NCBI GenBank assembly: GCA_030651035.1
Contig: JAUSCK010000293.1
Location: forward strand, 12,973-76,972
From: Elusimicrobiota bacterium
GTDB taxonomy: Bacteria; Elusimicrobiota; Elusimicrobia; Elusimicrobiales; UBA9959
Length of the DNA: 64,000 bases
Reading direction: 5' to 3'
Shown piece after piece: positions 8,699-54,764 of the stretch. The translations under genes were made by a program, and so were the position numbers. Below the pieces are notes generated by a model. It saw only the letters and a program-made list of their open reading frames with translations. It was not told the origin of the DNA and made no database searches. Each line of letters begins with the position of its first letter. The stretch's first letter is position 1.

Positions 8699-8819
8699 CT
8701 GTAGTGGGTGCAAGTAGAACCGGCGGGGGCGAGTTCCACCGGCATTCAAAAAAGAAGAACAATGAAAATAGATGAAAAAGTTAATGATAGGCCCAAAATA
8801 GTCGGGCGAGGCATTAAAT

Positions 8820-10898
8820 ATGACCGTTACTAAACTAAAAATATTGGCGATTGATGATGAAGAAATTAGTCTTAATACCCTAAATTCCACGGTGGCGCAT
8901 TCATTTCCCGCTGCCAGATTTCTACCCGCCGTAAACGGTCTCAAAGGTATAGCCCTGGCGCTGGCCGAGGACCCGGATCTAATCCTGCTCGATATAGTCA
9001 TGCCGGAAATGGACGGGTTCGAAGTATGCCGGCGGCTAAAGGAAGACGTGCGCCTCAGGGATATTCCTATAGTTTTTCTGACCGCGCTCAAACCCGATAA
9101 GGAAATATGCGAAAAAGCGTTCGAAGCGGGTGCTGACGCTTTTATCTTAAAACCCCTGGAGTTATGGGAACTGACCGTCCAGATAAGAGCAATGTTAAAG
9201 ATTAAAGCCGCCAATCTGTTACGGCGGTCCAAGCACGACCAGCTAGAGAGTCTGGTCGCGCGGCGAACCAGCGAACTTGCGGAAGAACTTGCCGCACGGA
9301 AAAAGGCGCTGGAATCATTGAGGGAAAGCGAAGTTTTGTTTAAAGCCGTGTTCACGGAAGCGCCTATGGGCATCTGCCTGGTCGATTCAGTAACAGGACG
9401 GTTCCTGAGCGTTAACCCCATGCTAGCAAGCATCATCGGCCGGCCTATAGAAGAACTCGCCGGGGCAGACTGGATGTCCGTCACGCACCCAGAAGATATA
9501 AAAGTCCAATCCGCTAATCTGGCGGCGTTGAACACCGGGAAGGCGAAAGTGTTCCAGATGGAAAAACGGTGCCTGAAGCCCGACGGGACTGTCGTCTGGG
9601 TAAAAATGACAGTAGCGCCGCTGCCGGCATTCGACATCTCCAATCCGCGCTATCTCGGCATGGTAGAAGATATAAGCGCAAGCCGGGCGGCGGAACAAGA
9701 AAAACTGAAACTTGAGGAACAGTTCCGCCAATCGCAAAAGATGGAGACAGCCGGCAGCCTGGCCGGCGGTATCGCGCACGACTTTAATAACATATTGACG
9801 GCGATCCTGTCTTATAGCGACTTCCTGCTCAGAAATCCGTGCCTGGACGTTCCCGGCCGCGCGGATGTGGAAGAAATTAAAAAAGCGGGGCAGCGCGCGG
9901 CCGCTTTAACGCGCCAACTCCTGATCTTCAGCCGCAGGCAGGTGCTGCAGCCGAAAGTGCTGGACGTAAACCACATCATTCAGGGAGTAAAGACAATGCT
10001 CGGCCGCCTCATCGGAGAAAATATAAAGTTAACGGCGCTCACAAGCAAAGTTCCGCCGCTTATAAAAGCCGACCACGGTTATATGGAGCAGGTGCTGCTG
10101 AATCTTTCGGTCAACGCCCGTGACGCCATGCCCAAAGGAGGCAAGCTTACCCTCGAAGCTTCTATCGTGCGTATGGACGAGGCGCATATCCACCGGCATG
10201 GGACCGTCGAGCCGGGTAACTATATACTGTTATCCGTCAGCGATACGGGAACCGGGATGAGCACGGACACGCAATCCCACATCTTTGAGCCTTTCTTTAC
10301 CACCAAACCGCGCGACAAGGGCACAGGCCTGGGGCTTTCCACGGTCCATGGGATCGTCAAGCAAAGCGGCGGTTCCATAGTTGTGTATAGCGAAGAGGGC
10401 TGCGGCACGGTTTTTAAACTTTATTTCCCGCAGGTTACTGGTAAAGCGATAGCAGCCGAACCCCCGGCGGTCGTTGTTAAGAAGATGCTTACCGGAACCG
10501 GAACCGTGCTGCTGGTGGACGATGACAGCTCGCTCCGGGCTCCCATACGGCGCGCTCTGACGCAGGCCGGTTTCACCGTTCTCGAAGCCTCCAGCGCCGA
10601 GGAAGCCCTGGCTATCTGTAAACGGCATAAAGACATTCAACTTATCTTAACGGACATGGTGCTGCCTAAAATGAACGGCATCGAACTGGCCGGGCGGGTG
10701 GGAACACTCCGCCCGGAAATAAAAGTGCTTTTCATGTCCGGCTACACGGACCACACCGCCCTTGCTCAGGGCATACTGGACCCGGACAAAAACTTTATCC
10801 AGAAACCATTCACACTCGATATGCTTACCCGAAAAACGCGGGAGCTTTGCTCAACATGTTATCCCGTCGAGAAGTCTTTAAAGGCAGCCCGCAAGTAA
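8820..10898 (+). CDS. hybrid sensor kinase (REC-PAS-HisKA-HATPase-REC)
   Basis: N-terminal receiver (ILAIDDEE...LLDIVMPEMDG). PAS-like region. H-box GGIAHDFNNILT. DTGTGM and GTGLGLS. C-terminal receiver (VLLVDDD...LTDMVLPKMNG). Confidence 0.85.
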   Translation: MTVTKLKILAIDDEEISLNTLNSTVAHSFPAARFLPAVNGLKGIALALAEDPDLILLDIVMPEMDGFEVCRRLKEDVRLRDIPIVFLTALKPDKEICEKAFEAGADAFILKPLELWELTVQIRAMLKIKAANLLRRSKHDQLESLVARRTSELAEELAARKKALESLRESEVLFKAVFTEAPMGICLVDSVTGRFLSVNPMLASIIGRPIEELAGADWMSVTHPEDIKVQSANLAALNTGKAKVFQMEKRCLKPDGTVVWVKMTVAPLPAFDISNPRYLGMVEDISASRAAEQEKLKLEEQFRQSQKMETAGSLAGGIAHDFNNILTAILSYSDFLLRNPCLDVPGRADVEEIKKAGQRAAALTRQLLIFSRRQVLQPKVLDVNHIIQGVKTMLGRLIGENIKLTALTSKVPPLIKADHGYMEQVLLNLSVNARDAMPKGGKLTLEASIVRMDEAHIHRHGTVEPGNYILLSVSDTGTGMSTDTQSHIFEPFFTTKPRDKGTGLGLSTVHGIVKQSGGSIVVYSEEGCGTVFKLYFPQVTGKAIAAEPPAVVVKKMLTGTGTVLLVDDDSSLRAPIRRALTQAGFTVLEASSAEEALAICKRHKDIQLILTDMVLPKMNGIELAGRVGTLRPEIKVLFMSGYTDHTALAQGILDPDKNFIQKPFTLDMLTRKTRELCSTCYPVEKSLKAARK

Positions 10899-11018
10899 AA
10901 AACTTCCGGTACCATGTAGCCCTCTCCGGCGCACGCAACGGAAATTTGATGTGCGTCAAAGGTTCTGCGGCCCATAGCCGTATAGACCGCATACCACAGC
11001 TACATGAAGGGCACAATT

Positions 11019-11414
11019 TTAAAGCAGGGACACGTAGATGTCCAGGTCGGACTTGGAGAAGCAGCAGAAAGTGATATCGATTCTGTATTTAGCGCTGTCT
11101 AAAAATTCACGCGCTGCTTTTACCGCTGTTTCGGCGGCCTCCTGCGGCGGGTAGCCGTAAACCCCGGTGCTTATGCACGGGAAGGCTATGGACCTTAAGC
11201 CTCTCTCCCGGGCCAGCTCCAAAGAGTTCCGGTAACAATTCCTTAAAAGTCCGGGCTCGTTCCTTTTCCCGCCGCGCCAGACAGGCCCTACGGTGTGTAT
11301 GACGTATCTGGCCGGCAATTCGTAACCGCCCGTGACCTTGGCCTCACCGGTTTTGCAGCCGCCCAAGCCGCGGCATTCTTCCAGGAGGCCGGGGCCGGCC
11401 GCGCGGTGTATGGC
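11019..11414 (-). pseudogene. 5'-truncated copy of the macro-domain gene (lacks ~34 N-terminal codons)
   Basis: Translates to [26 protein letters not shown]...DLDIYVSLL. Over the 114 residues compared it has 19 differences from the intact gene at 14517-15014. Homology stops near 11415 and no start codon is in context. Confidence 0.75.
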
Positions 11415-11455
11415 ACAGGGGGATGGGGTCAGGTCTTTACTTTGACCTTTAGCGC

Positions 11456-11495
11456 GAAGCCGCCGGGGCAGCCTGGCGGTTTTGTTTTGTAGAAT
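11456..11495 (+). terminator. conserved terminator-like hairpin, copy 1 of 4
   Basis: GAAGCCGCCGGGGCAGCCTGGCGGTTTTGTTTTGTAGAAT: a GC hairpin, a T-run and a TAGAAT (-10-like) box. Confidence 0.5.
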
Positions 11496-11582
11496 CTAGC
11501 GGGGATATTTATGCAACATTTACGTACTACCAAGACCACTAGCAGCTATAAATTGCTGGATGCGGATAAGCTAAGGGAAAAA

Positions 11583-11650
11583 GGGAAAAGGTAGCACGCA
11601 CATTTTTATATTTTTGTTATCTTTACCGTTAAGGCCCGGCTAACTTCCGG
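11583..11650 (+). repeat. direct repeat A (island-internal left copy)
   Basis: GGGAAAAGGTAGCACGCAC...AACTTCCGG. Both ends match 14398-14473 and the centre is AT-rich and variable. It begins with a short hairpin (AAAAGGT/ACATTTT). Confidence 0.6.
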
Positions 11651-11667
11651 TTTGATTGATTCTTAAT

Positions 11668-12219
11668 ATGAAGAGCATTGACTTGAAACCGGCAGTTTTT
11701 ACTCCGGCCGTAATACGCAGGCTTGAAAATCTCGGCCTGGTGCGCGCTTTCAGGCCTACGCCCCGGAGTTTGCGCGTAAGAGCGGGCTCCTGTGTGGTGG
11801 ACAAGGTTTACTCCACGGCCGCCCGGTTCGGAACGCATAAACTGATCTGCGTCGGCAAGAACGAGACGCGGATAGGCCTGACCGCGCATCCCGATAACGA
11901 AGACTTGATTTTAATAAATCCCGGCGGCTATAAATTCAAGCCGCTGTATCTTATTCTCGGGCTTGATAGCCCTAAGAATTTAGCACGTAAAGCCAGACTC
12001 GGCCTCCTGGGCGGGCGCGACCTGCTGGCCCTGCGGCTGCGGTATGATGATCCGAAAACCTGCGCGTTTACGATACTTAGGAACACCCCGCACTGCGAAG
12101 TGACCCTGCCCGGACCAGGGAAAGCCCCGGTTTTTTTCGTCACGGAACCCAGCGATCTTAAAATGGCCGCCGTCATTCTGCCGGGTTGCCGGTTCCGCAT
12201 ACGGGCAGAGGTGAGGTAG
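11668..12219 (+). CDS. hypothetical protein (island ORF A)
   Basis: ORF with ATG at 11668 (MKSIDL...), flanked by hairpin copies 1 and 2. No confident motif; HPDNEDLILINPGG is faintly cupin-like. Confidence 0.5.
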   Translation: MKSIDLKPAVFTPAVIRRLENLGLVRAFRPTPRSLRVRAGSCVVDKVYSTAARFGTHKLICVGKNETRIGLTAHPDNEDLILINPGGYKFKPLYLILGLDSPKNLARKARLGLLGGRDLLALRLRYDDPKTCAFTILRNTPHCEVTLPGPGKAPVFFVTEPSDLKMAAVILPGCRFRIRAEVR

Positions 12220-12254
12220 GGTATAGGTGGAGAAAAGGGGACAGGCTGCTTTTT

Positions 12255-12294
12255 AAAGCCGTCGGGGAAGCCCGGCGGTTTTATTTGCTAGGAT
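12255..12294 (+). terminator. conserved terminator-like hairpin, copy 2 of 4
   Basis: AAAGCCGTCGGGGAAGCCCGGCGGTTTTATTTGCTAGGAT, 36 nt after the stop of ORF A. Confidence 0.5.
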
Positions 12295-12327
12295 ATTTAT
12301 TAATCAATCATCTTAGGGGGAGCACAA

Positions 12328-13014
12328 ATGGAACCAACAGAACTGAAGAAGGTTGGGACTTTCGAGCAGTATAAACTCAATAATTTCAAGGACCTGGACA
12401 ATAAGCTGCTCAGCCGGCTGCACAAGGACTGGCCGGCCGGGGCGACGCACGCGGTATTTACATTCGCCGAACCGATAAAGAACGAGTGGCTGGTGAGCAA
12501 GCCTCTGCTGTCAAAGTATAATGTCGCCATTATCTACTCCGCCCAGCCGTCGCAGATAAAGGTGAAGAAAGTGGCGCTGCCGGAAACCTTAACTTCCGGA
12601 TGTCTGCCTCAGGCTAAAATGATGAGACTTTTCCTTGAAGGCTCCAAGGAGACCGTAAAGAAAATCAAGAAACTCGGGCCTGCGTTCAAAAAGGAGATAC
12701 GCTTGGCGGTCGTACTTATGAAAAAGTCCAGGCATGTGTCCCTTTTCAAGGACGGGAAACCTGTCACCCTTTCCGCTATAGTGAAGCGCAGGAACTATCT
12801 TGGCGAGTACTGCGACTGGATATTGTGGGGCTGGGCCGACAAGGGTCTGTCTATAAGCGAAAGCGTGGCCGAGAACGAGTACTTCTGGGGCCTGTGGAAA
12901 AAGTCCAGGCTGCCGGTAGAATTAAAGACCAGATCGTTCATGCCGGGCAATCAAAAACTCGCCCGCTCGCGCGGTTTTACCCCAAAGTACGTTACCGTAG
13001 CCAAGATGGCCTGA
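12328..13014 (+). CDS. hypothetical protein (island ORF B, lysine-rich)
   Basis: 228-aa ORF. ATG is preceded by AGGGGGAG. A hairpin GTGCCTTgagggtAAGGCAC follows the stop. No motif recognised. Confidence 0.55.
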   Translation: MEPTELKKVGTFEQYKLNNFKDLDNKLLSRLHKDWPAGATHAVFTFAEPIKNEWLVSKPLLSKYNVAIIYSAQPSQIKVKKVALPETLTSGCLPQAKMMRLFLEGSKETVKKIKKLGPAFKKEIRLAVVLMKKSRHVSLFKDGKPVTLSAIVKRRNYLGEYCDWILWGWADKGLSISESVAENEYFWGLWKKSRLPVELKTRSFMPGNQKLARSRGFTPKYVTVAKMA

Positions 13015-13079
13015 CTGGCCGTGCCTTGAGGGTAAGGCACCAGGAGACTTATTTAAATCAGTCTGTTTAATTAAGAACA

Positions 13080-13640
13080 ATGAAAAGTATCTTTGTTTAC
13101 CATATCAGGCAGCCGGGGTTTACGGGGAGTTGTTTGTATCCGCTTAACAGGCTTAAGGAAGTGCATCCGGATCTCCATGCCCGTTACAGCAAAAAATATG
13201 TCGGCCGGGAGTGGATGAACAAGCTGGTGATCCCTCCTTTGAACTGCCTGTGGAACGACGTGCTGCATTTTTCGCTGACGCATCCGGCCATGATATACGG
13301 GATACTTTCCGGGCTGGGCTTCGAGCACCATAAGGCGCCTCGGGAGTGGTTCGAGGTCCCGCTGGAAGATATCAAGGTTGACTCTTCCATCTTGTACCGA
13401 AACGAAGAGTATGACAAGGACAAAGAAGTACGGGACTCCTTTGGCTCGGATTTCGAGCCGGTGAACCCGGCGCGCGTTATGGAGCTTTCCGTTATGCCAG
13501 AGCGCAATTTGAACTATTACAAAAGCTGCCTTGAAAAAAAGATCCCGCCTTTGCTATGGGGTTATGCCCCCCACCTTTTGTACAAAGGAAAGCTGGAAGT
13601 AGGTGCTTATCGTACGCTGGATTGGAAGAATAACACATGA
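13080..13640 (+). CDS. conserved hypothetical protein (island ORF C)
   Basis: 186 aa. The pattern LYPLNRLKEVHPDLH...KKYVGRE...IPPLNCLWNDVLHFSLTHP recalls an uncharacterised family I remember from Firmicutes annotations. Unverified. Confidence 0.5.
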   Translation: MKSIFVYHIRQPGFTGSCLYPLNRLKEVHPDLHARYSKKYVGREWMNKLVIPPLNCLWNDVLHFSLTHPAMIYGILSGLGFEHHKAPREWFEVPLEDIKVDSSILYRNEEYDKDKEVRDSFGSDFEPVNPARVMELSVMPERNLNYYKSCLEKKIPPLLWGYAPHLLYKGKLEVGAYRTLDWKNNT

Positions 13641-14398
13641 AATCCATAAACTTTGATCATAGCTACACGGAAGATCTAGGGCACAGATTTTTCAAGGCCC
13701 TGGGGAGATCCGGCTTTGTTCTATCGGAAAACGAGGTCGAGCATCCGGGAAAGCAATTCTGCCGCTTCATAATGTTCAAGCACGGTTTCGGGCGTGTTTA
13801 CCTGGAATTTGTCCGGGTCGGGAAGGGCGGGGAAAGTGTCGATAAGCCTGGCGTTTCACTGCGGTACACAGGCCCGCTTAAGCAGTATTTCGAGTCCATC
13901 AAGGCCCGGAAGGACATAAAGGCTAAATACATCCATAAGAACTACGCCTGGAAGAAAGACAGCAAGAGCGCTCTTCCCGGCTGGAATTTCCTGACGTTTT
14001 TAAGCCCCAGATTTAAGAACATCTACCTGTGGTTCACCGAATACGAGCCCCATCCCACGAAAAAGCGCGTAACGCCTCCGCCTCACCCGAACACAGCCCA
14101 TACCATTGCCGGTTTAGAACTTCTCGTGAGAGGTCCTGACAGACCGAAACTTAAAAAAGTCTTCGGCAGGAGCCTTAATGGGAAAGAAGTAAGTTTGGGC
14201 GGTATCCGCCTTTTCATCGCGCCAGGCCGGTCAACTAGGATTTCTTCTGTAGTTATAAAATGTAAAAGTCTTAATCGCTTCATGAAACTGGCAAATGTGA
14301 AATCCACGATTCTCTGGCGCGGACAAACCGCGGTTCTTATTAAGAACCCTAATCCTAAAATGTGGAATATTGTGGTTCTAGAGGGAATAGGGAAATAG
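13637..14398 (+). CDS. glyoxalase-like/VOC-fold protein (putative; island ORF D)
   Basis: ATGA overlap with ORF C. YLEFV and HPNTAHTIAGLELLV resemble glyoxalase-like domain signatures. Weak call. Confidence 0.4.
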   Translation: MKSINFDHSYTEDLGHRFFKALGRSGFVLSENEVEHPGKQFCRFIMFKHGFGRVYLEFVRVGKGGESVDKPGVSLRYTGPLKQYFESIKARKDIKAKYIHKNYAWKKDSKSALPGWNFLTFLSPRFKNIYLWFTEYEPHPTKKRVTPPPHPNTAHTIAGLELLVRGPDRPKLKKVFGRSLNGKEVSLGGIRLFIAPGRSTRISSVVIKCKSLNRFMKLANVKSTILWRGQTAVLIKNPNPKMWNIVVLEGIGK

Positions 14399-14473
14399 GG
14401 AAAAGGTCGCACGCACCTTTTAAATGAAATCATAATTGCTTTCCCTTTTTTGTACGGTTCGGACAACTTCCGG
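14398..14473 (+). repeat. direct repeat A' (island-internal right copy)
   Basis: GGGAAAAGGTCGCACGCAC...AACTTCCGG. Contains a hairpin AAAAGGT-cgcacgc-ACCTTTT followed by a short T-run directly after the ORF D stop. Confidence 0.6.
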
Positions 14474-14516
14474 AGATATCTCGATTGCCAAAGACGAAAA
14501 GCAGCTCTAAATTGCC

Positions 14517-15014
14517 TTAGTTTTGCAGCAGGGAGAGGTAGATGTCCAGATCGGACTTGGAGAAGCAGCAGAAAATTATCTCTATTTTGTCTTTAGTGCG
14601 GTCTAAAAATCCGCGCGCGGTTTTTACAGCTATTTCAGCAGCTTCCTGCTGCGGGTAGCCGTAAACCCCGGTGCTTATGCACGGGAAGGCTATGGACCTT
14701 AAGCCTTTCTCCCGGGCCAGCTCCAAAGAGTTCAGGTAGCAATCCCTTAAAAGTTCGGGCTCGTTCCTTTTACCGCCGCGCCAGACAGGCCCCGCGGTGT
14801 GTATGACGTATTTGGCCGGCAAGTCGTAGCCGCCGGTGAGCTTGGCCTCGCCGGTTTTGCAGCCGCCCAGGCCGCGGCATTCTTCAAGGAGGCCGGGACC
14901 GGCCGCGCGGTGTATGGCCCCGTCCACCCCGCCCCCGCCCAGCAGGCTGGTGTTGGCCGCGTTGACGATGGCGTCAACCTCGAGCTTTGTTATATCCCCG
15001 GTTACAGCTTTCAT
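14517..15014 (-). CDS. macro-domain protein (O-acetyl-ADP-ribose deacetylase / ADP-ribose-binding family)
   Basis: Start at internal ATG 15014 ([39 protein letters not shown]...). Typical macro motifs [13 protein letters not shown] and ISTGVYGYP. 4-nt overlap with the upstream gene. Confidence 0.85.
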
Positions 15015-15532
15015 TGCCGTCCCCCGCCCTGCCTGGCCCCGGCCAGGTCTTTTATTATATGCGGCAGCGTGCGGCGCAGGTACTGTATTATTATAGCGCC
15101 CGCCGAGCCGGAAAGGGCGAAAGCGTCGTCCACCGGGCCGGGAATATTTATCGGGAGCATTTCGTAAATGAAGATCAGCCCCGGCAGAATAAGCCATTTT
15201 ATCCCGGTCTGGTAACGTTTGTTTATCACCATGCACGCGCCCAGCAGCAGCCCGGCACCGATAAAGGCCGGCGCCGAGAACAGGCTTGCCCCGAAGCTGA
15301 ACGGCGCCAGGGCCAGCGACCACAGCGCCGCGAATACCGGCGGCAGCGCCGCGTCGAGGTAGCTGTAGGTTTTAACGAAGAAGAGGCTGATGACAGCGGC
15401 GATAAAGAACCCGGTAAAGATCACCGCCCCCGCCAGCAGGCCGAAGCGGAGATCCCTGGCGGCCCAGCCGATAAGGAAGGCCAGGACGGAAAAAGGAAAA
15501 GACGCCGCGCTTATAGCCAGGCTCCGCCACAT
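15011..15532 (-). CDS. integral membrane protein, unknown function
   Basis: Internal ATG 15532 ([14 protein letters not shown]...) with several hydrophobic helices. The longer 300-aa ORF prefix is Arg/Pro-rich and looks non-coding. Confidence 0.55.
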
Positions 15533-16800: not shown

Positions 16801-18243
16801 ATGCCTTATCAAAACCTGCGGAAATTCATAGAAACGCTGGAAGGGTCCGGCGAACTGCGCCGCATTAAGGCCGAAACCGACCCGGACCTGGAGATCGCCG
16901 AAATAGCCGACAGGGTTTCAAAGACCGCCGGCCCGGCCCTCCTGTTCGAAAATGTCAAAGGCAGCCGGTACCCGCTGCTGATAAACGCCTTCGGCAGCCG
17001 CAAGCGCATGCAGCTGGCGCTGTCCTGCGGCTCTTTTGAAGAGATCGCGGCCAGGATAGAGGCGAATATTAAAATGCGCCCGCCGGAAGGCCTGGCGGGA
17101 AAAATAAAAATGCTCTTCACGCTGAAAGAGCTGGCCGGCTTCCTGCCGAAAAAAGTAGGCAGCGCACCCTGCCAGGAACAAGTTTACACCGACGGCCCTT
17201 TGCTGGACCGGCTCCCCATCCTTAAATGCTGGCCCGGGGACGGCGGGCCTTTCATCACCCTCCCCGCGGTCATAACAAAAGATCCCGACACCGGCGTCCA
17301 GAACACAGGCATGTACCGCATGCAGAAGTACGACAACAATACCACCGGGATGCATTGGCAGTACAATAAGGACGGCACGCGCCACTTCGACAAGTACAAG
17401 GCCCGCAACCAGCGCATGGAGGTGGCCGTGGCCCTTGGCGGGCCGCCCTCCGTCACTTACGCCGCTTCGGCCCCGCTGCCCCCGGATATCGACGAGCTGC
17501 TCTTCGCCGGCTTCATAGATTCCAAACCGGTGGAGATCGTGAAGGCAAAGACCGTGGACCTGTTCGTTCCCGCCGAGGCCGACTTTATAATCGAAGGCTA
17601 CGTAGACCCGGCTGAAGAGCGGCTTGAAGGGCCCTTCGGCGACCATACCGGCTTTTACTCCGCCGCCGATAAATACCCCGTCTTCCACGTAACCGCCCTG
17701 ACCTCCAGGAACGACGCCGTCTACCCGGCCACCGTCGTAGGGAAGCCACCGATGGAAGACTGCTACATGGCCAAGGCCACGGAAAGGCTGTTCCTGCCGC
17801 TCCTGAAAATGGTGATCCCCGAAGTGGTGGACATCGAGCTCCCCATCGAAGGCGTCTTCCATAACTGCGCCCTTGTTTCGATAGACAAAAAATATCCCGG
17901 CCAGGCTAAAAAAGTGATGAACGCTTTCTGGGGACTGGGTCAGCTGGCCTCCACCAAGTTCATCGCCGTCTTCGACAAGGACATAGACCTGCGCGATCCC
18001 GGCACGGTCCTGTGGAAGCTGCTGAACAACACCGACCCGAAGCGGGACCTGCTGATGTCTGAAGGTCCCCTTGACGCGCTGGACCACAGCGCCCCGCACG
18101 CCAACTTCGGCGGCAAAATGGGCATTGACGCCACCCGCAAGACCAGGGAGGAAGGGATGGGCAGGGACTGGCCTGAAGAGATAGCAATGTCCGCCGAGGT
18201 CAAAGAGAAGGTCGCGCGCCGCTGGAAGGAGTATGGATTTTAG
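16801..18243 (+). CDS. UbiD-family (menaquinone-pathway) decarboxylase
   Basis: 480 aa. N-terminus YQNLRKFIETLEGSGELRRIKAETDPDLEIAEIADR, plus GPFGDHTGFYS and YPATVVGKPPMED, all typical of the UbiD family. Confidence 0.85.
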   Translation: MPYQNLRKFIETLEGSGELRRIKAETDPDLEIAEIADRVSKTAGPALLFENVKGSRYPLLINAFGSRKRMQLALSCGSFEEIAARIEANIKMRPPEGLAGKIKMLFTLKELAGFLPKKVGSAPCQEQVYTDGPLLDRLPILKCWPGDGGPFITLPAVITKDPDTGVQNTGMYRMQKYDNNTTGMHWQYNKDGTRHFDKYKARNQRMEVAVALGGPPSVTYAASAPLPPDIDELLFAGFIDSKPVEIVKAKTVDLFVPAEADFIIEGYVDPAEERLEGPFGDHTGFYSAADKYPVFHVTALTSRNDAVYPATVVGKPPMEDCYMAKATERLFLPLLKMVIPEVVDIELPIEGVFHNCALVSIDKKYPGQAKKVMNAFWGLGQLASTKFIAVFDKDIDLRDPGTVLWKLLNNTDPKRDLLMSEGPLDALDHSAPHANFGGKMGIDATRKTREEGMGRDWPEEIAMSAEVKEKVARRWKEYGF

Positions 18244-19075
18244 GAAACTCCCGGGGCTGCTGATGCCGGAGCAGACGCTGTTCGCGCTGCCTTTCGCCTG
18301 GCTCGGCGTTCTCTTCGCGCGCGGCCACGGCTTCCGCACCTGGCTGCTGGTCACCCTGGCGCTGGCCGCCGCGCGCACGGCAGGCATGGCCTTCAACCGG
18401 GCGATAGACGCCCGCATAGACGCCGCCAACCCGCGCACGAAAGACCGCGCCATCCCCAGGGGCGAAGTGACGAGGCTGGAAGCTTTCGGGCTCGCCGTTA
18501 TCTCCTGCCTGGCGCTTATAGCCGCCTCTTTCTTTCTGAACCCACTGTGCTTCCGCCTCTCTTTTGTCGCCGTGGCGCTCCTTGCGGGCTACTCTTATTT
18601 CAAGCGGTTCTCCGCGTCCTCCCACTTCTGCCTGGGCTTCACCGAGGCCGCCGCCCCGATAGGCGGCTACCTGGCCGTTACGGGGCGGGTGGACTTGCTT
18701 TCCCTGGTGCTGGGAGCCGCCATAATGCTGTGGATAGCGGGCCTTGATATCGTTTACGCCTTGCAGGATAAGGATTTCGACAGGCAGGCCGGGCTGCACT
18801 CAATACCGGCAACCTACGGAGAGAAGCTTGCCCTGACAACCTCGGCGCTCTGCTACGGGGCCTCCTTCAGCGCGCTGCTATCGGCCGGGCTGATGACCGG
18901 CATGGCCTTCCCGTACTGGGCCGCGCTTGTCTGCGTCGCCGGACTTTTTATATACCAGCAGAAAGCCGCCCGCGCCGCCGACATCCTTGCGGCCATGCCG
19001 AAGATCTTCAGGGTCAACATGTACGTCTCCCCCGCCCTGCTCGCGGGCGCCCTTGTCGACAGTTTTTTAAGGTAA
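18233..19075 (+). CDS. UbiA-family aromatic prenyltransferase
   Basis: Polytopic membrane protein with NRAIDARIDAANPRTKDRAIP (NxxxDxxxD) and a second D-rich motif DIVYALQDKDFD. Overlaps the UbiD stop. Confidence 0.85.
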   Translation: MDFRKLPGLLMPEQTLFALPFAWLGVLFARGHGFRTWLLVTLALAAARTAGMAFNRAIDARIDAANPRTKDRAIPRGEVTRLEAFGLAVISCLALIAASFFLNPLCFRLSFVAVALLAGYSYFKRFSASSHFCLGFTEAAAPIGGYLAVTGRVDLLSLVLGAAIMLWIAGLDIVYALQDKDFDRQAGLHSIPATYGEKLALTTSALCYGASFSALLSAGLMTGMAFPYWAALVCVAGLFIYQQKAARAADILAAMPKIFRVNMYVSPALLAGALVDSFLR

Positions 19076-19085
19076 CGGAGAAACT

Positions 19086-19724
19086 ATGATCGCAGTCGCT
19101 ATAACCGGCGCAAGCGGACCGATACTCGGCATCCGGCTGATCGAAGAGCTGCTCAATTCCGGCAAAACCGTTTACGCCGTTGTTTCCGAAGCCGCCTGGA
19201 GCGTGATCGGGCACGAGCTTTCGTATAAGAAGTCCGGCCCCGCCCCGCTGGCCGCGCTCCTCTCAAAGAGAGGGCGGGCCTCCGCGCCGGCTCTGCTGAA
19301 AGAATTCGACCCCCATGATCTGTTTTCGCCCCTGGCCAGCGGCTCCGCGCCCTGCGACGCGCTGGTGGTGGTCCCGTGCTCGATGAAGACGCTCTCCGCG
19401 GCGGCCGGCGGCTACGCGGATTCGCTCATCACCCGGGCCTGCGACGTGGCCCTGAAGGAAAAGAGGAAGCTGATATTTGTCCCGCGCGAGACGCCCCTGA
19501 GCGCGATACACCTTGAGAATATGCTGAAACTCTCGCGCGCCGGCGCCGTAATACTGCCGCCGGTGCTGGGTTTCTACTCCCGCCCGGAGTCCGTCTCGGA
19601 CATGGTGGATTTCGTCACGGGCAAGATCCTGAACATGCTGGGAATAAAGCACCGCCTTTTCAAAGGCTGGGAGGAGCAGACTTCCGGCGCCGCCGCTAAA
19701 ACCGGGAAACGCAGGGCCGCCTGA
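19086..19724 (+). CDS. ubiX: UbiX-type flavin prenyltransferase
   Basis: MIAVAITGASG..., VVPCSMKTLSAAAGGYADSLITRACDVALKEKRKLIFVPRETPL is the typical UbiX/Pad1 core. Confidence 0.85.
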   Translation: MIAVAITGASGPILGIRLIEELLNSGKTVYAVVSEAAWSVIGHELSYKKSGPAPLAALLSKRGRASAPALLKEFDPHDLFSPLASGSAPCDALVVVPCSMKTLSAAAGGYADSLITRACDVALKEKRKLIFVPRETPLSAIHLENMLKLSRAGAVILPPVLGFYSRPESVSDMVDFVTGKILNMLGIKHRLFKGWEEQTSGAAAKTGKRRAA

Positions 19725-19746
19725 CCGCCGGCCCTTTCCGCAACAG

Positions 19747-20847
19747 ATGAAAAAACTGCCGGACACCATAAGCGACAGCGCGCTGCGCCCGATCGCGAAG
19801 AAAGTTTACGAGGGCATCCCCGTCAGCGCGGCCGACGCCCGCCGCCTGCTCGCCACGAACAGCATCCTCGACCTGGGCAGGATCAGCTCCCACGTCCGCC
19901 GGAAACTGCACGGCGGCGCCGCCTATTACGGCGTCAGCATGAACCTGAACTTCACCAATATCTGCGCCCTGCGCTGCCCGCTCTGCGCCTTTTCCCGCGA
20001 CGCGGGACAGGAAGGCGCGTACCTGCTTGCGCCCGGCGAGATCGAGCGGCGCGTGAAGACCGCCGCCGCCGCGGGCGTGGACGAGGTGCACATAGTCGGC
20101 GGGCTCAACCCGGAGCTGAAGCTGTGCTACTTCGAAGATATGCTGCGGCGGATAAAGAAGATAAAGCCGGGCATCTTCATAACGGCTTTCACCGCGGTGG
20201 AAATAGAGTATTTCTCCCGCAGCGAGGGAACCTCCGTAGAAGAGACCCTTAAGAGGCTGATGGCCGCCGGCCTCGGCGCGATGCCGGGCGGCGGCGCGGA
20301 AATATTCTCGCCGCGCGTGAGGAAAGTCATCGCCCCGCTGAAGATCTCCGGCAACCGCTGGCTTGAAATAATGAGGACCGCCCATTCGGCCGGCCTGAAG
20401 ACTAACGCCACGATGCTCTACAACCACCTGGAAACGGACGCCGACATCGTCGACCATCTCAGCAGGATCAGGGACCTGCAGGAGGAAACGCGCGGCTTCA
20501 AGGCTTTCGTGCCGCTGCCTTTCCACGGCGAGAATACCGGGATAGCCGCCCGGCGCGCGAGCACCACCGGCTATGACGATATCCGCATTTACGCCGCAAG
20601 CAGGATATTCCTGCATAATGTGCCCCATATAAAGGCCCTTTGGATGTACCTGGGCGAGAAAATGGCGCAGGTGCTGCTCCGCTTCGGCGTGGACGATTTT
20701 TCCGGCACCTACTCGGGGGAAAAAGTGGTGCACGCGGCCGGCGCCTCCACCGCCGACCACGGGAGCGAGGCCTTCCTGAGAAGGTTAATACTGAACGCCG
20801 GGCTGAAGCCGGTGCGAACCACGGCGGATTACGGAGCGTTCAAATGA
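19747..20847 (+). CDS. mqnE: radical-SAM aminofutalosine synthase (MqnE-type)
   Basis: CxxxCxxC cluster NFTNICALRCPLCAF and HIVGGLNP, a CofH/MqnE-like layout. The MqnE versus MqnC assignment is by motif memory only. Confidence 0.65.
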   Translation: MKKLPDTISDSALRPIAKKVYEGIPVSAADARRLLATNSILDLGRISSHVRRKLHGGAAYYGVSMNLNFTNICALRCPLCAFSRDAGQEGAYLLAPGEIERRVKTAAAAGVDEVHIVGGLNPELKLCYFEDMLRRIKKIKPGIFITAFTAVEIEYFSRSEGTSVEETLKRLMAAGLGAMPGGGAEIFSPRVRKVIAPLKISGNRWLEIMRTAHSAGLKTNATMLYNHLETDADIVDHLSRIRDLQEETRGFKAFVPLPFHGENTGIAARRASTTGYDDIRIYAASRIFLHNVPHIKALWMYLGEKMAQVLLRFGVDDFSGTYSGEKVVHAAGASTADHGSEAFLRRLILNAGLKPVRTTADYGAFK

Positions 20848-23523: not shown

Positions 23524-24122
23524 TCTGCCTGGTAATGGCCACGCTGCTGGAGGCGAAGCCGTTCCTCAAAGGGCTTTCCCTGAAAAGAACTTCCTCGAAG
23601 CCTTTCCCGGTATACGGGGCGGGAAATCTCGTCATGATCATTTCCGGCATAGGAAAAGCCAATGCGGCCATGGCAACGGCCTTCGCCTGCCTGGAATTCG
23701 GCCCCAGGCTCCTTGTTAACCTGGGGGCCGCCGGCGCCACGGACACAGCTCTCCCGCCCGGGGCGAACCTCCACGTAAGCCTTGCGGTGGAATATGACAG
23801 GCCCGGGCTCAGGTCCGGGGCGCCCCATGAGCATACTCCCGATATTTTCAGGGGCTTTCCCCTGGCCGCCATAGCGACCCTGGACCGGCCCACCCTGGAA
23901 GCGGCCGGGAGGCGCAGGCTGGCAAAGAGAACACAGCTTGTGGATATGGAAAGCGCGGCCTTCATACAGGCCTGCAGGCGGTTCGGCAGGAAGGGCTACC
24001 TTTTCAAATTCGTGACCGATACGCCCGCGCATACCCGCGGGAGCGAGATAGTGGCCAATATAAAAAAATACCGGGACCGCTTTTTCGATTTTTTCATCCA
24101 TTCCGTCATGCCCCGCCTTTAA
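23505..24122 (+). CDS. mqnB: futalosine hydrolase / nucleosidase (MqnB-type)
   Basis: PNP/MTAN-fold motifs (ISGIGKANAA, VDMESAAF). Last gene of the mqn cluster. Confidence 0.7.
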   Translation: MQRKPVICLVMATLLEAKPFLKGLSLKRTSSKPFPVYGAGNLVMIISGIGKANAAMATAFACLEFGPRLLVNLGAAGATDTALPPGANLHVSLAVEYDRPGLRSGAPHEHTPDIFRGFPLAAIATLDRPTLEAAGRRRLAKRTQLVDMESAAFIQACRRFGRKGYLFKFVTDTPAHTRGSEIVANIKKYRDRFFDFFIHSVMPRL

Positions 24123-52131: not shown

Positions 52132-53286
52132 ATGCCAGATGAAAAAAGACCTGTAATAATTTACGGCGGGAGTTTCGACCCCCCCCACCGCGGGCACACG
52201 GCGCTGGCCGCGGCGGCCCTGCGCCAGCTTAATCCCGCCGTGCTTTATTTCGTGCCCGGTTTCCACACGCCTTTCAAGGATCTGCGGCCCGCCGCCTTTT
52301 CCGGCCGCGCCGCGATGCTTAAGGCCGCGCTGGCCGAAGCCGGGCTGGCCGGCAGGAAGGAAATTAAAATAAGCTCCTTCGAGGCGGACCAGAAGCGCGT
52401 GGTCTACACTTATGAAACGGTCGCTCATTTCCGGCGGCTGCATCCCGGCGCCCCCGTTTATTTTCTTATGGGCTCCGATTGCCTGGCCGGGTTCAAGGGC
52501 TGGCGGCGCCCCGGCTTTATCCTTAAAAACACGCGGCTGCTGGCGGGCCTGCGGCCCGGGTGCGCCATGCATAGAAGATCCGGCGTCCCTTTTACCGCGC
52601 TGGCCGGGCGTTTCCCCAGGGCCGACTCTACCCGGATCAGGGCGGAGCTGTTCCTGGGCGGCAGGCCGGCGCAGCTGCACCGGGCCGTGCTGGACCTGAT
52701 AGCGGCAAGATCCCTTTACCTGGCGCGCGAGCGGGCGCTGCTCAGGAAACTTCTTTCGCCGGCGCGCTTCGCCCATTCCCTGCACACCGCGGAGCTGGCC
52801 CTCAGGCTGGCGGGGGCGGCGGGCGTGCCGCAGCAGAAGGCCGCGCTTGCCGCCCTGCTGCACGACTGCGCCCGCGACCTTCCCGCGGCGGAGCTGCGCC
52901 GCTGCTGCCTGAAGCGGGCCCCGCGGACCGCCCTGCCGGAGCTGACGCTGAAAGAGGCGCCCGTGCTGGCGCACGCCTGGGCCGGCGCGGCCCTGGCCAG
53001 GGAAAAGTTCGGAGTGAAAGACGCGGAAATACTGGAAGCGATAGAACAGCACGCTACCGGGGCCCCGGGCATGGGACCGCTGGCCCGGCTTATTTATGTC
53101 AGCGACCTGGCCAACCAGGGGCGCGCTTTCCGCGAGGCGAAGCTGGTGAGGGCGCTGGCTTTTAAGGATTTTGAGGCGGCATTCAGGGCGGCCAATTATA
53201 TTAAGCTTGTCTATGCGTTTTCCGGCGGCGGCTGGGTGCACCCGCTGAGCGTTTCGCTATGGAACAGTCTTCAGAAAAAAAGATGA
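52132..53286 (+). CDS. nadD: fusion of nicotinate-nucleotide adenylyltransferase (NadD) and YqeK-type HD phosphohydrolase
   Basis: N-terminus IYGGSFDPPHRGHTALA ((H/T)xGH motif). C-terminal half RFAHSLHTAELALRLA...LLHDCARD (HD domain). Confidence 0.8.
   Translation: MPDEKRPVIIYGGSFDPPHRGHTALAAAALRQLNPAVLYFVPGFHTPFKDLRPAAFSGRAAMLKAALAEAGLAGRKEIKISSFEADQKRVVYTYETVAHFRRLHPGAPVYFLMGSDCLAGFKGWRRPGFILKNTRLLAGLRPGCAMHRRSGVPFTALAGRFPRADSTRIRAELFLGGRPAQLHRAVLDLIAARSLYLARERALLRKLLSPARFAHSLHTAELALRLAGAAGVPQQKAALAALLHDCARDLPAAELRRCCLKRAPRTALPELTLKEAPVLAHAWAGAALAREKFGVKDAEILEAIEQHATGAPGMGPLARLIYVSDLANQGRAFREAKLVRALAFKDFEAAFRAANYIKLVYAFSGGGWVHPLSVSLWNSLQKKR
53143..53280 (+). repeat. 138-bp direct repeat, copy A (functional 3' end of nadD-yqeK)
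   Basis: Aligns without indels to 54627-54764 with 12 mismatches by manual alignment. Confidence 0.8.
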
Positions 53287-53298
53287 TCTGCGGCCGCG

Positions 53299-54417
53299 TC
53301 AAAGCCCCGCCGGCAGCGTAAAACTTATGGTGGTGCCGCCCCCGGGTCCGCTCTCGGCCCAGATCTTTCCTCCGTGAGATTCCACCGCGAGCTTGCAGAA
53401 CGCGAGGCCCAGCCCCTTACCGAAACTATACACAGAGGCGTCTTTTGACGCTTCCTGTTTAAAGAACTTGTCGAAGACCTTTTTCAGGTGCTCGGGGGCT
53501 ATTCCCCTGCCGGTATCGGACACCGAGAAAACGTAGCGGCCTTCTTTTTTAGAGCGCTTCGCGCGTACCGTGATGGCTCCGCCGTCAGGGGTGAATTTGA
53601 GGCTGTTCCCCAGCAGGTTGAGCAGGACCCTGCGTATAAGCCTGTGGTCGGCGTTAAGAGACGGTATCCTCGCGGGGATTTTTTTCTTCAGGGAGATGCC
53701 GCGCTTCTCCATGTCAATTTCCATCTGCTTCACGCAGAAGCCTACAAGCTCTCCGACCCCGCCCGGTGTTTTAACCAGCTGCAGGCTGCTCTGCTCGATA
53801 AGCGTGATGTCCATAAGGTCGTTTATCATATCCAGCTCGAGGTCGCAGGACCTCATTGCCTTTTGCGCAAAATCCTGTTGCCGGGCGCTGAGCTTTCCAT
53901 GCGCGCCCCTGCTCATTATGTCCAACCAGCCCCTGGCCGAGGCCAGGGGGTTTTTCAGGTCGTGGACTATCAGTTGGGTCAGGTTGTCCTTCAGCTCGCC
54001 CAGCTTTTTCAGCTCCTCGTTCTTTTGCTTCAGCTCTTTGTGAAGCTGCGCTACCCTGATATGGGCGCGTATCCTCGCCAGCAGCTCCAGCGCTTTGCAT
54101 GGCTTGGTGAGGAAATCGTCGGCGCCGCAATCCAGGCCGCACACTTTATCCTCAAGATCTTTAAGAGCGCTGAGCATGATCACCGGGATATCCCGGGTTT
54201 CCCCGCTTTTTTTCAATTCCTGGCAGACTTCGAACCCGTCCATGCCGGGCATCATCACATCGAGAAGTATCACATCCGGCTTTTCGCCGGCGATCCGCTC
54301 CAGGGCCTCTTTCCCGCTGTAGCAGACATACACATTGTAGCCGCCCCCCTCCAGGATCAGCTGCAAAGTCCTGGTCACTTCAAGCGTGTCGTCGATGATC
54401 AATATATTTTCAGCCAT
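53299..54417 (-). CDS. response-regulator/histidine-kinase hybrid (REC-HisKA-HATPase)
   Basis: Start at internal ATG 54417 (MAENILIIDD...LLDVMMPGMDG). H-box LIVHDLKNPL, DTGRGI, GLGLAFCK. Confidence 0.85.
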   Translation of the reverse strand: MAENILIIDDTLEVTRTLQLILEGGGYNVYVCYSGKEALERIAGEKPDVILLDVMMPGMDGFEVCQELKKSGETRDIPVIMLSALKDLEDKVCGLDCGADDFLTKPCKALELLARIRAHIRVAQLHKELKQKNEELKKLGELKDNLTQLIVHDLKNPLASARGWLDIMSRGAHGKLSARQQDFAQKAMRSCDLELDMINDLMDITLIEQSSLQLVKTPGGVGELVGFCVKQMEIDMEKRGISLKKKIPARIPSLNADHRLIRRVLLNLLGNSLKFTPDGGAITVRAKRSKKEGRYVFSVSDTGRGIAPEHLKKVFDKFFKQEASKDASVYSFGKGLGLAFCKLAVESHGGKIWAESGPGGGTTISFTLPAGL

Positions 54418-54626
54418 AGATCTGTAGGTAACATAAGACCTGCTATCGTTAGTTCGTTCCTTAGTTTCTATCTTTCCGTTGCTTAAAAAATTTCCAAAAA
54501 ACGCTCCCTTCCCTTTTGTTTTAATATAATACAAAAAGCCGGGCGTTTTTCTGTAATTTTGAAAAGCTCCCCCTGCCCGGCTGTTGCCGGGCGGGAGAAT
54601 TGCGGCGGGCGGTTATTCTGGCTGGG

Positions 54627-54764
54627 TTGGTGAGAGCGCCGGCTTTTAAGGATTTTGAAGCGGCATTCAGGGCGGCTAATTATGTTAAACTTGTCTATGC
54701 GTTTCCCGGCGGGGGCCGGGTGCGCCCGCTGAGCGTTTCACTATGGAACAGTCTTCAGAAAAAA
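54627..54764 (+). repeat. 138-bp direct repeat, copy B (orphan nadD-yqeK 3' end; contains start of next gene)
   Basis: Still translates as LVRAPAFKDFEAAFRAANYVKLVYAFPGGGRVRPLSVSLWNSLQKK-stop. The ATG of the 54743 gene lies inside it. Confidence 0.8.

Follow-up and report, generated by a model that had tools for sequence, protein, structure and literature searches.

Within the window, a 64,000-nt stretch of a metagenome-assembled contig from an uncultured Elusimicrobiota bacterium, four accessory ORFs are bracketed by a complete macro-domain gene and a same-orientation 3' fragment of a second copy. On balance, our analysis favors reading this locus as a recombination scar, formed by DNA of a related strain at a strain-variable spot downstream of the conserved macro gene, and not as a self-moving element. 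The proposed event is reconstructed from this one contig.

Architecture of the macro locus

The intact gene, macroR (14517..15014, minus strand, 165 aa), encodes a macro-domain (ADP-ribose hydrolase) protein (PF01661, E 2e-50; 232 bits for NF001664, O-acetyl-ADP-ribose deacetylase, whose cut-off is 200) and is translationally coupled to the upstream membrane-protein gene. The truncated copy, macroL (11015..11414, minus strand), lacks the first 32 codons and its own start codon, and its reading frame is open from codon 33 to the stop. The two form a direct repeat of ~400 nt (11015-11414 / 14514-14920) with 356 of 396 aligned positions identical (89.9%). Alignment and profile matches thus bear out the pair of same-orientation copies described in the sequence-only reading; its count of 19 protein differences also stands, over 131 aligned residues instead of 114. 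Between the copies lie ORF1 (11668-12219, 183 aa), ORF2 (12328-13014, 228 aa), ORF3 (13080-13640, 186 aa) and ORF4 (13637-14398, 253 aa), all open on the plus strand as claimed. A terminator-like module (12255-12294) is found 3' of ORF1. The interval 11415-14513 has a GC content of 0.501, in the lowest 0.4% among all 3.1-kb windows (mean 0.575, sd 0.033), which agrees with the GC drop reported for the four genes. The 8.7 kb left of the island is likewise low in GC (0.52).

Groundwater relatives with 88-92% nucleotide identity (L089-L094) carry a single macro gene in the order mem2-mem1-(ABC-12TM)-macro-sigma54 activator and lack the island, which provides the island-free configuration anticipated earlier. 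These relatives also lack the histidine kinase (8820-10898) at the corresponding position, indicating that the variable stretch is a mosaic of about 5.8 kb; the region differing from the relatives, about 8702-14513 with the kinase included, is thus larger than the island first described. The REC-PAS-HisKA-HATPase-REC hybrid kinase module (8820..10990, plus strand) is 83% identical in nucleotides to L096/L097 over a stretch that opens precisely at the start codon and closes 92 nt beyond the stop. In L096/L097, L098/L099 and L188, its orthologs lie in an HTH-kinase-REC-REC setting that is conserved. A further break point falls at 15015..15036, where the relatives have two extra genes separating the 170-aa gene from macro, one for an ABC ATPase and one for a 505-aa membrane protein. 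Neither a donor-type genome (mem1-macro-DUF4097 remnant-cargo) nor a recipient-type genome (macro-kinase) was found.

The window contains only two long direct repeats, the macro pair and a 137-nt repeat (53144-53280 / 54628-54764, 92% identity) around a minus-strand REC-kinase (53299-54534). This second locus (53144..54764) has a cytidylyltransferase/HD gene and a LytR_C gene as its neighbors, and the earlier claim that a kinase insertion there has the same architecture is borne out. Seven of the 12 differences between its repeat copies are synonymous. The stop codon of the displaced copy is still where homology places it, and the copy overlaps the beginning of LytR_C as expected of a native gene pair; this retained overlap identifies the displaced fragment as the resident allele. 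By analogy, macroL would be the resident copy and the 3' end of macroR the incoming one.

Borders of the island

The left border is marked by a REP-A composite (11418..11495, plus strand), consisting of GGGGGAT, a GGGGTCAGGTCTTTACTTTGACCT hairpin and a GC-rich terminator-like hairpin, which begins 3 nt from the macroL break. Copies of the REP-A motif are spread over 88 metagenome contigs and are frequently arranged as inverted pairs, and in L114 and L154 the motif borders Y1_Tnp (IS200-like) genes of 288-291 aa; conservation upstream of the motif stops after about 7 nt. Further inside, repeat A (11574..11650, plus strand) comprises a degenerate REP-B hairpin (11586-11606) and a weakly similar tail ending in AACTTCCGG, and the left part of repeat A' (14389..14454, plus strand) comprises the REP-B hairpin AAAAGGT-CGCACGC-ACCTTTT (14401-14421) and a spacer. 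The A/A' repeats are real and non-random: the 19-mer GGGAAAAGGTMGCACGCAC has exactly 2 copies in 64 kb against 0.03 expected, and AACTTCCGG has 4 copies against 0.77 expected.

We rejected the left halves of A and A' as island-specific recombination sites, as they match a REP-type hairpin; the REP-B-related AAAAAGGTAGCAGGTACCTTTTT flanks a 210-aa Y1_Tnp (IS200-like) gene in L169. The right half of A' was likewise rejected as repeat-site sequence. It is a remnant of a DUF4097 gene (14455..14512, plus strand), namely the last 19 codons (…VRTTSGDISIAKDEKQL-stop), convergent on macroR and, across 58 nt, 84% identical to the end of the DUF4097 gene that comes next after macro in L095. At the other macro copy, a 17-nt remnant (10999..11015) makes up the joint where macroL meets the kinase module and is identical to a site within the 364-aa gene of the L095-type neighborhood (E 4e-5, relatives' contigs). 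Both macro ends therefore bear remnants of the L095 post-macro gene set, 58 nt from DUF4097 after macroR and, after macroL, 17 nt from the gene that follows it in L095, which points to repeated replacement at the spot downstream of macro.

These borders bear on the alternative that the island is an integrative element of the e14/phage 21 type, which brought a surrogate macro 3' end and either lost its integrase or is mobilized in trans, for which a candidate would be a REP-associated Y1 (IS200-like) transposase with the border REP hairpins as its substrate. The layout is identical to icd/e14/icdC, and the architecture occurs at two loci within 64 kb. In addition, REP-A lies 3 nt from the break and REP-B-type hairpins bracket the four ORFs in direct orientation, as the ends of IS200/IS605 elements are oriented. 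The position of a REP element right at the break counts against the scar reading, since it could reflect an enzyme-mediated (Y1 transposase) event instead of a random illegitimate joint. However, no integrase, transposase, phage or plasmid gene was found in 8.4-15.2 kb or ~10 kb either side, in agreement with the earlier statement that no recombinase is recognizable; a Y1 transposase is absent from the whole 64-kb window, and the region showed no similarity to phages or plasmids. The right end would moreover fall within the macro coding sequence, where there is no hairpin, and the junctions of the second locus carry neither REP type. Direct orientation of REP-B is expected without mobility, because all REP-B copies in L169 point the same way as the surrounding genes. 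The first 20 nt are identical in both macro repeat copies, which speaks for this alternative, but the same 20 nt encode the most conserved motif of the macro protein and are identical in all relatives. Furthermore, homologs of the cargo occur elsewhere without bounding macro fragments. We therefore consider this alternative unlikely, and the discrete integrative element proposed earlier is not supported, given the missing recombinase, the larger mosaic region, and the REP hairpins and gene remnants at the borders.

The two macro copies resemble alleles

Our comparison with the relatives reveals that macroR is 90.8% identical in nucleotides to the single macro gene of L089-L092, with its stop codon shifted by two codons relative to their gene, and that macroL is 89.9% identical to the gene of L089. 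Pairwise, macroR, macroL and the relatives' gene are 89.4-89.9% identical, and the relatives are 91-95% identical among themselves. This mutual equidistance describes a star tree and not a young in-genome copy. The private changes of macroL comprise 8 synonymous and 9 non-synonymous ones (dN/dS 0.36, P = 0.03 against neutrality, from small counts) and look like those under purifying selection; the branch lengths of macroL and macroR are 17 and 19 changes (P = 0.02 against a long-standing pseudogene, again from small counts). Equidistance and the selected-looking changes of macroL together argue that the copies are alleles from two lineages and not the products of an old local duplication.

A further alternative is an assembly chimera stringing together two co-existing strain haplotypes of the locus, and we regard it as quite improbable. 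The window is a MAG contig with two such cases, the divergence of the macro copies equals inter-strain divergence, and an independent assembly (Logan contig L001) ends inside a 56-nt stretch common to both copies and at 11950. However, a strain switch at a shared k-mer would produce one hybrid gene, not a full gene and a fragment, and the junction of macro nucleotide 97 with REP-A has no shared sequence able to mislead a de Bruijn graph. The Logan contig, which covers 11950-14680 only and has the macroL/REP-A junction outside it, reproduces the ORF4-macroR junction.

It is very unlikely that the macro 3' region was duplicated locally in tandem long ago, with cargo inserted later and a dead copy diverging slowly. 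Adjacency, shared orientation and 10% divergence of the copies speak for it, but a dead copy is difficult to reconcile with purifying-selection-like changes, the lack of any frameshift or stop, and the lack of rate acceleration. The single macro copy of the relatives stands at the same 10% distance, and the remnants downstream of the two copies differ.

Under the favored reading of a recombination scar, the donor would be a chromosomal segment of a relative about 10% diverged. The incoming segment would have comprised the donor macro gene (or no less than its final 400 nt), the DUF4097 remnant, and the four accessory genes with their REP elements; the hybrid kinase, the sigma-54 activator gene and what is left of the 364-aa gene would have formed the resident neighborhood. 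Homologous recombination within macro or upstream of it would have closed one side, and an illegitimate joint between the REP-element boundary and position 97 of the resident macro gene the other. Homology-facilitated illegitimate recombination is a candidate pathway, and single-crossover integration of a circularized fragment bearing the macro 3' segment would be an equivalent route; both the direction of transfer and the pathway are what we infer. The outcome would be one complete macro gene, the incoming cargo, and a promoterless resident 3' fragment displaced downstream. The second locus (53.1-54.8 kb) would have arisen by the same process, which perhaps also shaped the A/A' pair at an earlier time.

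Cargo genes

Profile searches gave zero family assignments for ORF1-ORF4 in Pfam, NCBIfam, PADLOC or PHROGs, and no homolog of ORF1 was found. ORF2 belongs to a small uncharacterized family (23 representatives at E <= 1e-3), whose members in L104, L109 and L168 are 56-60% identical to it, and L003 encodes a distant homolog. ORF3 has 72 homologs, the named ones mostly from Elusimicrobiota. Its AF2 model is confident (pLDDT 91), and the predicted fold is closest, by a weak match, to ADP-ribosyltransferases: the top PDB matches in Foldseek are DarT, OspC3, PltA and CopC (best E 0.055, TM 0.43), and no sequence-level link to these enzymes was found. ORF4 has homologs 62-64% identical in L104 and L158 and is possibly glyoxalase/VOC-like; its single-sequence AF2 model (pLDDT 35) is unusable. 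The VOC-like label given earlier comes down to a sub-threshold Glyoxalase_3 match (E 0.012) of the L158 homolog (64% identical). The ORF2, ORF3 and ORF4 families occur together, in varying order and with REP-A, in chromosomal accessory clusters of other contigs (L104, L168, L003); as ordinary chromosomal accessory genes, they fit a piece of chromosome and not a dedicated element.

It is highly improbable that ORF3, an ADP-ribosyltransferase-fold enzyme in this proposal, pairs with the macro hydrolase as a DarTG-like writer/eraser whose coupling explains the intact macro gene: the exclusively ADP-ribosyltransferase PDB matches of a confident model and the intact macro gene ~0.9 kb from ORF3 are set against the weakness of these matches, the lack of a sequence link and of an evident conserved catalytic Glu, a negative PADLOC result, convergent rather than operonic genes, a macro gene conserved in relatives without ORF3, and a macro gene near 0 of 11 homolog loci.

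Comparison with known systems

The REP elements here agree with the published definitions of REP/REPIN and RAYTs (PMC3116915, PMC3337134), being short extragenic palindromes, single or in inverted doublets, that flank a single-copy Y1 (IS200-like) transposase gene. At the macro locus they mark the junction and intergenic spacers. REPs are not known to carry multi-gene cargo.

Campbell-type single crossover of a circular molecule that carries a partial homologous segment likewise leaves its insert between two directly repeated copies of that segment. Such crossovers gave duplications of 109-950 bp in E. coli conjugation experiments with laboratory plasmid constructs (PMC3240628), sizes that match the 137 and 400 nt here.

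[quoted passage not shown] The 3' ends there code for polymorphic toxin domains on which diversifying selection acts, and immunity genes stay with the displaced pieces. By comparison, the macro gene encodes a housekeeping-type hydrolase, and its displaced piece shares 90% identity with the new one and has no evident use.

The layout matches that of e14/phage 21 in E. coli icd (icd-prophage-icdC), where the target gene is complete with a 3' end from incoming DNA, and a slightly different resident 3' fragment lies in the same orientation at the far junction (PMC13626634). However, the prophage e14 brings its own site-specific recombination system and att sites and is excised upon SOS induction, whereas the macro locus has no integrase, excisionase or phage gene, its insert is ordinary accessory chromosome, and its borders are REP elements and gene remnants. 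The earlier interpretation is thus supported for the intact gene, the displaced 3' fragment and the island-free relatives and unsupported for a discrete mobile element, so that the macro locus resembles e14/icd in layout only.

Two macro-domain gene copies bracket an AT-richer four-gene island

The intact macro-domain gene (macroR, 14517–15014, minus strand) encodes a complete 165-aa protein that matches PF01661 with 170 bits and NF001664 with 232 bits, above the curated cut-off of 200, and is thus predicted to be a full-length member of the YmdB-type O-acetyl-ADP-ribose deacetylase family. The second copy (macroL, 11015–11414, minus strand) lacks a start codon and reads in frame from codon 33 to the stop; it scores 167 bits against NF001664, under the cut-off of 200, and model positions 1–35 are missing. 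Aligned, the copies agree at 356 of 396 nt positions (89.9%), and at the amino-acid level 19 of 131 residues differ; the 20 nt that open both are identical, equally so in the single genes of all relatives. The insert is bracketed by an intact target gene and a displaced 3' fragment in the same orientation. The segment between them (11415–14513) has a GC content of 0.501, in the bottom 0.4% of windows of that length (3.1 kb) across the 64 kb, and carries four plus-strand ORFs, ORF1 (11668–12219), ORF2 (12328–13014), ORF3 (13080–13640) and ORF4 (13637–14398), confirming the AT-richer island described in the sequence-only reading. The direct repeats A (11583–11650) and A' (14398–14473) of that reading also exist, as the 19-mer that they have in common is present at exactly two places in the window, where 0.03 would be expected.

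The families of ORF2, ORF3 and ORF4 recur in chromosomal accessory clusters

The profile search that had been proposed for the four ORFs returned no family in Pfam, NCBIfam, PADLOC or PHROGs. ORF1 has no detectable relatives, and ORF2 has a small family, with 23 cluster representatives. ORF3 gave 72 matches, whose named members are mostly Elusimicrobiota MAGs. Its model from a 54-sequence alignment (pLDDT 91, pTM 0.88) has as best PDB matches exclusively ADP-ribosyltransferases (DarT, the best of them, OspC3, PltA, CopC and pertussis-like toxins); these matches are weak (best E 0.055, TM 0.43), and suggest a predicted ADP-ribosyltransferase-like fold. No link to ADP-ribosyltransferases was found at the sequence level, and a profile of the ORF3 family had no match among PDB sequences. 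Residues Y7, H8, P21, L22, Y40, R43, W58, D60, P69 and H165 are invariant in the ORF3 family; no Pfam family covers it, and a homologue carries the annotation 'group-specific protein' in one source. The proposal that ORF4 is VOC-like gained limited support, from a near full-length but sub-threshold Glyoxalase_3 match of a homologue (E 0.012); the single-sequence AF2 model of ORF4 was unusable.

The families of ORF2, ORF3 and ORF4 recur together, in varying order and with the hairpin motif REP-A (see below), in chromosomal accessory clusters of three metagenome contigs (L104, L168 and L003), where the neighbours include acetyltransferase-like, beta-lactamase-like and kinase-like genes. Because of this recurrence, the insert looks like a piece of a relative's chromosome. 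As a working guess from these neighbours, the cargo may be a putative set of small-molecule-modifying accessory enzymes.

Related contigs carry a single macro gene at a strain-variable spot

In a collection of 5.8 billion proteins, the nearest macro proteins are 86–88% identical and come from groundwater metagenome contigs. Contigs L089–L094 match the window on both sides at 88–92% nt identity, with the gene order 363-aa and 170-aa membrane-protein genes (mem2-mem1; window 16636–15036), ABC ATPase, 505-aa membrane protein, one macro gene and a sigma-54 activator gene, the last two spaced by 175–470 bp. The window counterpart of the activator gene runs from 8576 or 8701 down to 7427. The genes for the ABC ATPase and the 505-aa 12-TM protein, which lie between the 170-aa gene and macro in L089–L094, are absent at window 15015–15036; at this position macro is start/stop-overlapped with the 170-aa gene. 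Thus the empty site sought among relatives was found in part: L089–L094 have a single macro gene and no island, but the site is not clean, as the hybrid histidine kinase gene (8820–10898, plus strand) is also absent and two extra genes lie upstream. The extra DNA of the window relative to L089–L094 runs from ~8702 to 14513, kinase included. mem2-mem1 is 91–92% identical to the relatives up to 15036, and the cargo has no counterpart in them.

Relatives have kinase orthologues of 81–83% identity, placed within a conserved HTH-kinase-REC-REC locus (L096/L097, L098/L099 and L188), with homology spanning exactly from the start codon to 92 nt beyond the stop. Since homology starts exactly at the start codon, the upstream region is now a different one, shared divergently with the sigma-54 activator gene. 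The kinase module (8820–10990) appears to have been moved or copied out of the HTH-kinase-REC-REC context. In a further relative, L095, macro is followed by another neighbourhood, a convergent DUF4097 gene and two further genes. Given these differing neighbourhoods (L089–L094, L095 and the window), the region downstream of macro is, judged from the aligned contigs, a strain-variable spot.

The right flank (16801–24122, GC ~0.61) resembles a core futalosine-type menaquinone operon, with UbiD-like, UbiA, flavoprotein, two radical-SAM MqnC/E-like, two VitK2_biosynth and nucleoside phosphorylase genes, and this side of the locus appears to be stable chromosome backbone. A genome-collection scan anchored on the UbiD-like gene, a poor anchor, gave no syntenic relative (best match 81% aa, no common neighbours). 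Exact look-ups of macroR and of the kinase returned no record, and donor-type sequence was not found in any collection searched.

The two macro copies behave as alleles of different lineages

Over the common 396 nt, macroR and macroL are 89.9% identical, macroR and L089 89.4%, and macroL and L089 89.9%, while L089, L093 and L095 share 91–95% among themselves. The two copies and the relatives' gene are mutually equidistant, forming a star tree; of the sites at which the copies differ, L089 has the macroR base in 17 and the macroL base in 19. The changes private to macroL comprise 8 synonymous and 9 non-synonymous ones with conservative replacements (dN/dS 0.36, against 0.43 for macroR), a split with P = 0.03 under a neutral expectation of ~1:3. 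The macroL branch holds 17 changes and the macroR branch 19, small but agreeing counts (P = 0.02 if macroL had been a pseudogene since the split). macroL belonged to a working gene for most of its divergence, and the copies are therefore alleles of two lineages, brought together recently. Blocks of common sites marking a crossover within the 400-nt repeat were looked for and none were found.

A second locus shows the same architecture

Besides the macro pair, the window holds just one long direct repeat (53144–53280 and 54628–54764; 137 nt, 92%), and this encloses a minus-strand REC-HisKA-HATPase kinase gene with a GC content of 0.54 versus 0.65 in its neighbours, a cytidylyltransferase/HD gene and a LytR_C gene, which bears out the earlier remark that 53.1–54.8 kb is built alike. 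The copies differ at 12 positions, 7 synonymous and 5 non-synonymous in the frame of the upstream gene. Because the displaced copy keeps its stop at the homologous place and the LytR_C start codon within it, as in the native overlapping gene pair, its sequence clearly points to the displaced fragment being the resident allele, while the 3' end of the intact gene and the kinase would be incoming. By analogy, macroL would be the resident remnant, and macroR, or at least its 3' 400 nt, would have come with the cargo.

Remnants of the L095 arrangement and REP-like hairpins lie at the junctions

Directly after the macroR stop, 14455–14512 matches the 3'-terminal 58 nt of the L095 DUF4097 gene at 84% identity and still reads …VRTTSGDISIAKDEKQL to a stop in frame; this remnant is the right half of A'. 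Directly after the macroL stop, the 17 nt at 10999–11015 recur unchanged within the gene that comes next in L095, and occupy the otherwise unexplained joint to the kinase module. At the truncated end of macroL, macro homology ends at 11414, and GGGGGAT-GGGGTCAGGTCTTTACTTTGACCT starts 3 nt on, followed by a GC-rich terminator-like hairpin.

The motif at this break (REP-A, 11418–11495) was found in 88 contigs of a metagenome collection, singly after stop codons, as inverted doublets 0–70 nt apart, and as inverted pairs ~925 nt apart that enclose genes of 288–291 aa with an IS200-like Y1 transposase domain. This arrangement and its Y1 genes show the properties by which REP/REPIN elements and RAYT (REP-associated tyrosine transposase) genes are defined (PMC3116915, PMC3337134). 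The family reads GGGGTCAGGTCTTTACTTT(T)GACCT, often preceded by GGGGAAT, at window 11418–11495, at 4279 and 10637 of L003, and in L100–L187; Y1_Tnp + HTH genes (288–291 aa) flanked by REP-A lie at 543–1409 of L114 and 6293–7168 of L154. REP-A often comes fused with a GC-rich, terminator-like hairpin that is conserved (consensus AGCCGCCGGGGAAGCCCGGCGGTTTT); this hairpin follows unrelated genes at 11457–11490, 12255–12294 and 60853–60885 and is also present in many metagenome contigs with or without REP-A. A degenerate intergenic sequence at 30318–30350 (GGGGTCGGAAAGGGGTCAGGTCTTGAAATTTG) is the sole other REP-A-like copy seen in the window. The literature searched contained no link between REPs and Elusimicrobia.

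The left halves of A and A' contain a second hairpin, AAAAGGT-N7-ACCTTTT (REP-B), a relative of which, AAAAAGGTAGCAGGTACCTTTTT, lies next to a 210-aa Y1 transposase gene and also between co-directional genes in contig L169. Since the hairpin recurs in these two settings, A and A' are not island-specific recombination sites. Their candidacy as att-like sites was accordingly rejected, the left half being the REP-type hairpin of another contig and the right half of A' the DUF4097 remnant. In L169, hairpins of the type AAAAAGGTA-GCAGG-TACCTTTTT occur at 3891, 4551 and 8712, and the Y1_Tnp gene (3927–4559) has its REP-B flanks in direct orientation. The window counterparts at 11586–11606 (degenerate stem) and 14401–14421 bracket ORF1–ORF4, and the L169 copies between ordinary co-directional genes obey the same orientation rule. 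Within the A/A' similarity, the 33-nt hairpin part alone is statistically solid. A and A' may have arisen by duplication of a single earlier junction (REP hairpin and DUF4097 remnant, ~80 nt) and have since diverged; they would then record a third such scar, older than the other two. The kinase 3' end (AAAGGCAGCCCGCAAG…AACTTCCGG) was rejected as a third copy of A, its sequence being native to the kinase locus in relatives. An integron gene cassette was also ruled out: there is no integrase, and the left halves of A and A' match the REP-type hairpin by a Y1 gene, not attC.

DISCUSSION

Inter-strain recombination that left a displaced gene end next to a conserved gene is the most economical account of this locus, and one that we favour somewhat over all others taken together. 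The incoming segment would have taken the place of the resident DNA between the end of the 170-aa gene and macro position 96 inclusive, which would simply explain why the ABC ATPase and 12-TM genes are absent from the window. It could have entered by homologous exchange on the conserved side with one illegitimate joint (homology-facilitated illegitimate recombination), the route put forward for T6SS and Rhs loci with displaced 3' ends (PMC5361080). Alternatively, a circularised fragment with the macro 3' segment could have integrated by one crossover, which in E. coli gave duplications of 109–950 bp (PMC3240628). Either pathway would yield exactly the observed layout. The features of 3'-end displacement are present: a conserved anchor (mem2-mem1), heterologous cargo beyond it, and retained fragments (macroL and that of the second locus). 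The copies also behave as alleles of different lineages under purifying selection, by the star tree, the dN/dS values of both macro copies and the 7 synonymous and 5 non-synonymous differences at the second locus. Plain recombination leaves one feature to coincidence, the REP element sitting exactly at the break, and we flag this as the best lead to a more specific mechanism.

A genuine mobile element mobilised in trans, perhaps by a RAYT at work on the REP boundary, would also account for an intact target gene with a displaced 3' fragment and for the REP at the break, but it is unlikely: no integrase or excisionase was found in the ORFs searched, and tblastn with both RAYT types detected no Y1 transposase in the window (nothing below E = 1), Y1_Tnp genes being found in other contigs only. 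No integrase, transposase or phage family was found in any ORF of 0.5–26 kb, 8.4–15.2 kb included (Pfam, NCBIfam, PHROGs, PADLOC), and Rfam gave nothing at E ≤ 1 over 8.4–15.2 kb. The island had no blastn match in phage and plasmid collections, and viral-contig scans with ORF1 and ORF4 found none.

An assembly chimera is rather improbable. A Logan contig of run SRR13727527 (L001) is 100% identical to the window over 11950–14680, and NCBI holds the same proteins as the window's on a 77-kb MAG contig. The main caveat is that the whole account rests on one metagenome-assembled contig, and the independent assembly (11950–14680) does not reach the macroL/REP-A junction. L001 has its left end at 11950, mid-ORF1, without a visible repeat, which could reflect low coverage or strain heterogeneity leftward.

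Old in-place duplication of macro is disfavoured and has little probability: the changes of macroL look selected, and its branch is not longer than that of macroR. The sequence-only reading had named, as the pattern of an ancient local duplication, relatives sharing the duplicated arrangement; the relatives are instead single-copy. We give equally little weight to integrase-free cassette addition at 3' ends of conserved genes in this lineage, in which incoming DNA would bring a replacement 3' end and a RAYT in trans would make the far joint at a REP boundary, so that two to three events in 64 kb would stem from one dedicated mechanism, not from occasional illegitimate recombination. Finally, a DarTG-like functional coupling, with the predicted transferase-fold gene ORF3 beside a macro hydrolase, is very improbable, as ORF3 and macroR converge, relatives lacking ORF3 still conserve the macro gene, no macro gene lies near any of 11 homologue loci, PADLOC gave no match, and ORF3 has no Pfam match and a weak fold match.

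Together, the island-free comparison and the allele-level evidence make this locus a route of accessory gene gain without an element-encoded recombinase in uncultured Elusimicrobiota, the displaced gene end being a datable scar left after related-strain DNA was spliced beside a conserved gene. On the account favoured here, it adds a case to a known kind of scar that, to our knowledge, has not previously been described in the phylum Elusimicrobiota. Because such scars mimic the footprints of integrative elements, telling the two apart matters for mobile-element annotation in metagenome-assembled genomes. Two by-products may be of more lasting use: the two REP families and their Y1 transposase genes, and the uncharacterised family of ORF3, whose annotated members come mostly from Elusimicrobiota and which is predicted, with a confident model, to have an ADP-ribosyltransferase-like fold.

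With respect to known systems, the architecture parallels that of icd/e14 (PMC13626634), as the sequence-only reading had proposed; the layout and the island-free relatives agree with this parallel, whereas the integrase/excisionase machinery that defines this family, next to an attachment site, is absent here. By comparison, the likeness to loci formed by homology-facilitated illegitimate recombination lies in an anchor on one side, foreign DNA beyond it, and a resident end kept past the joint.
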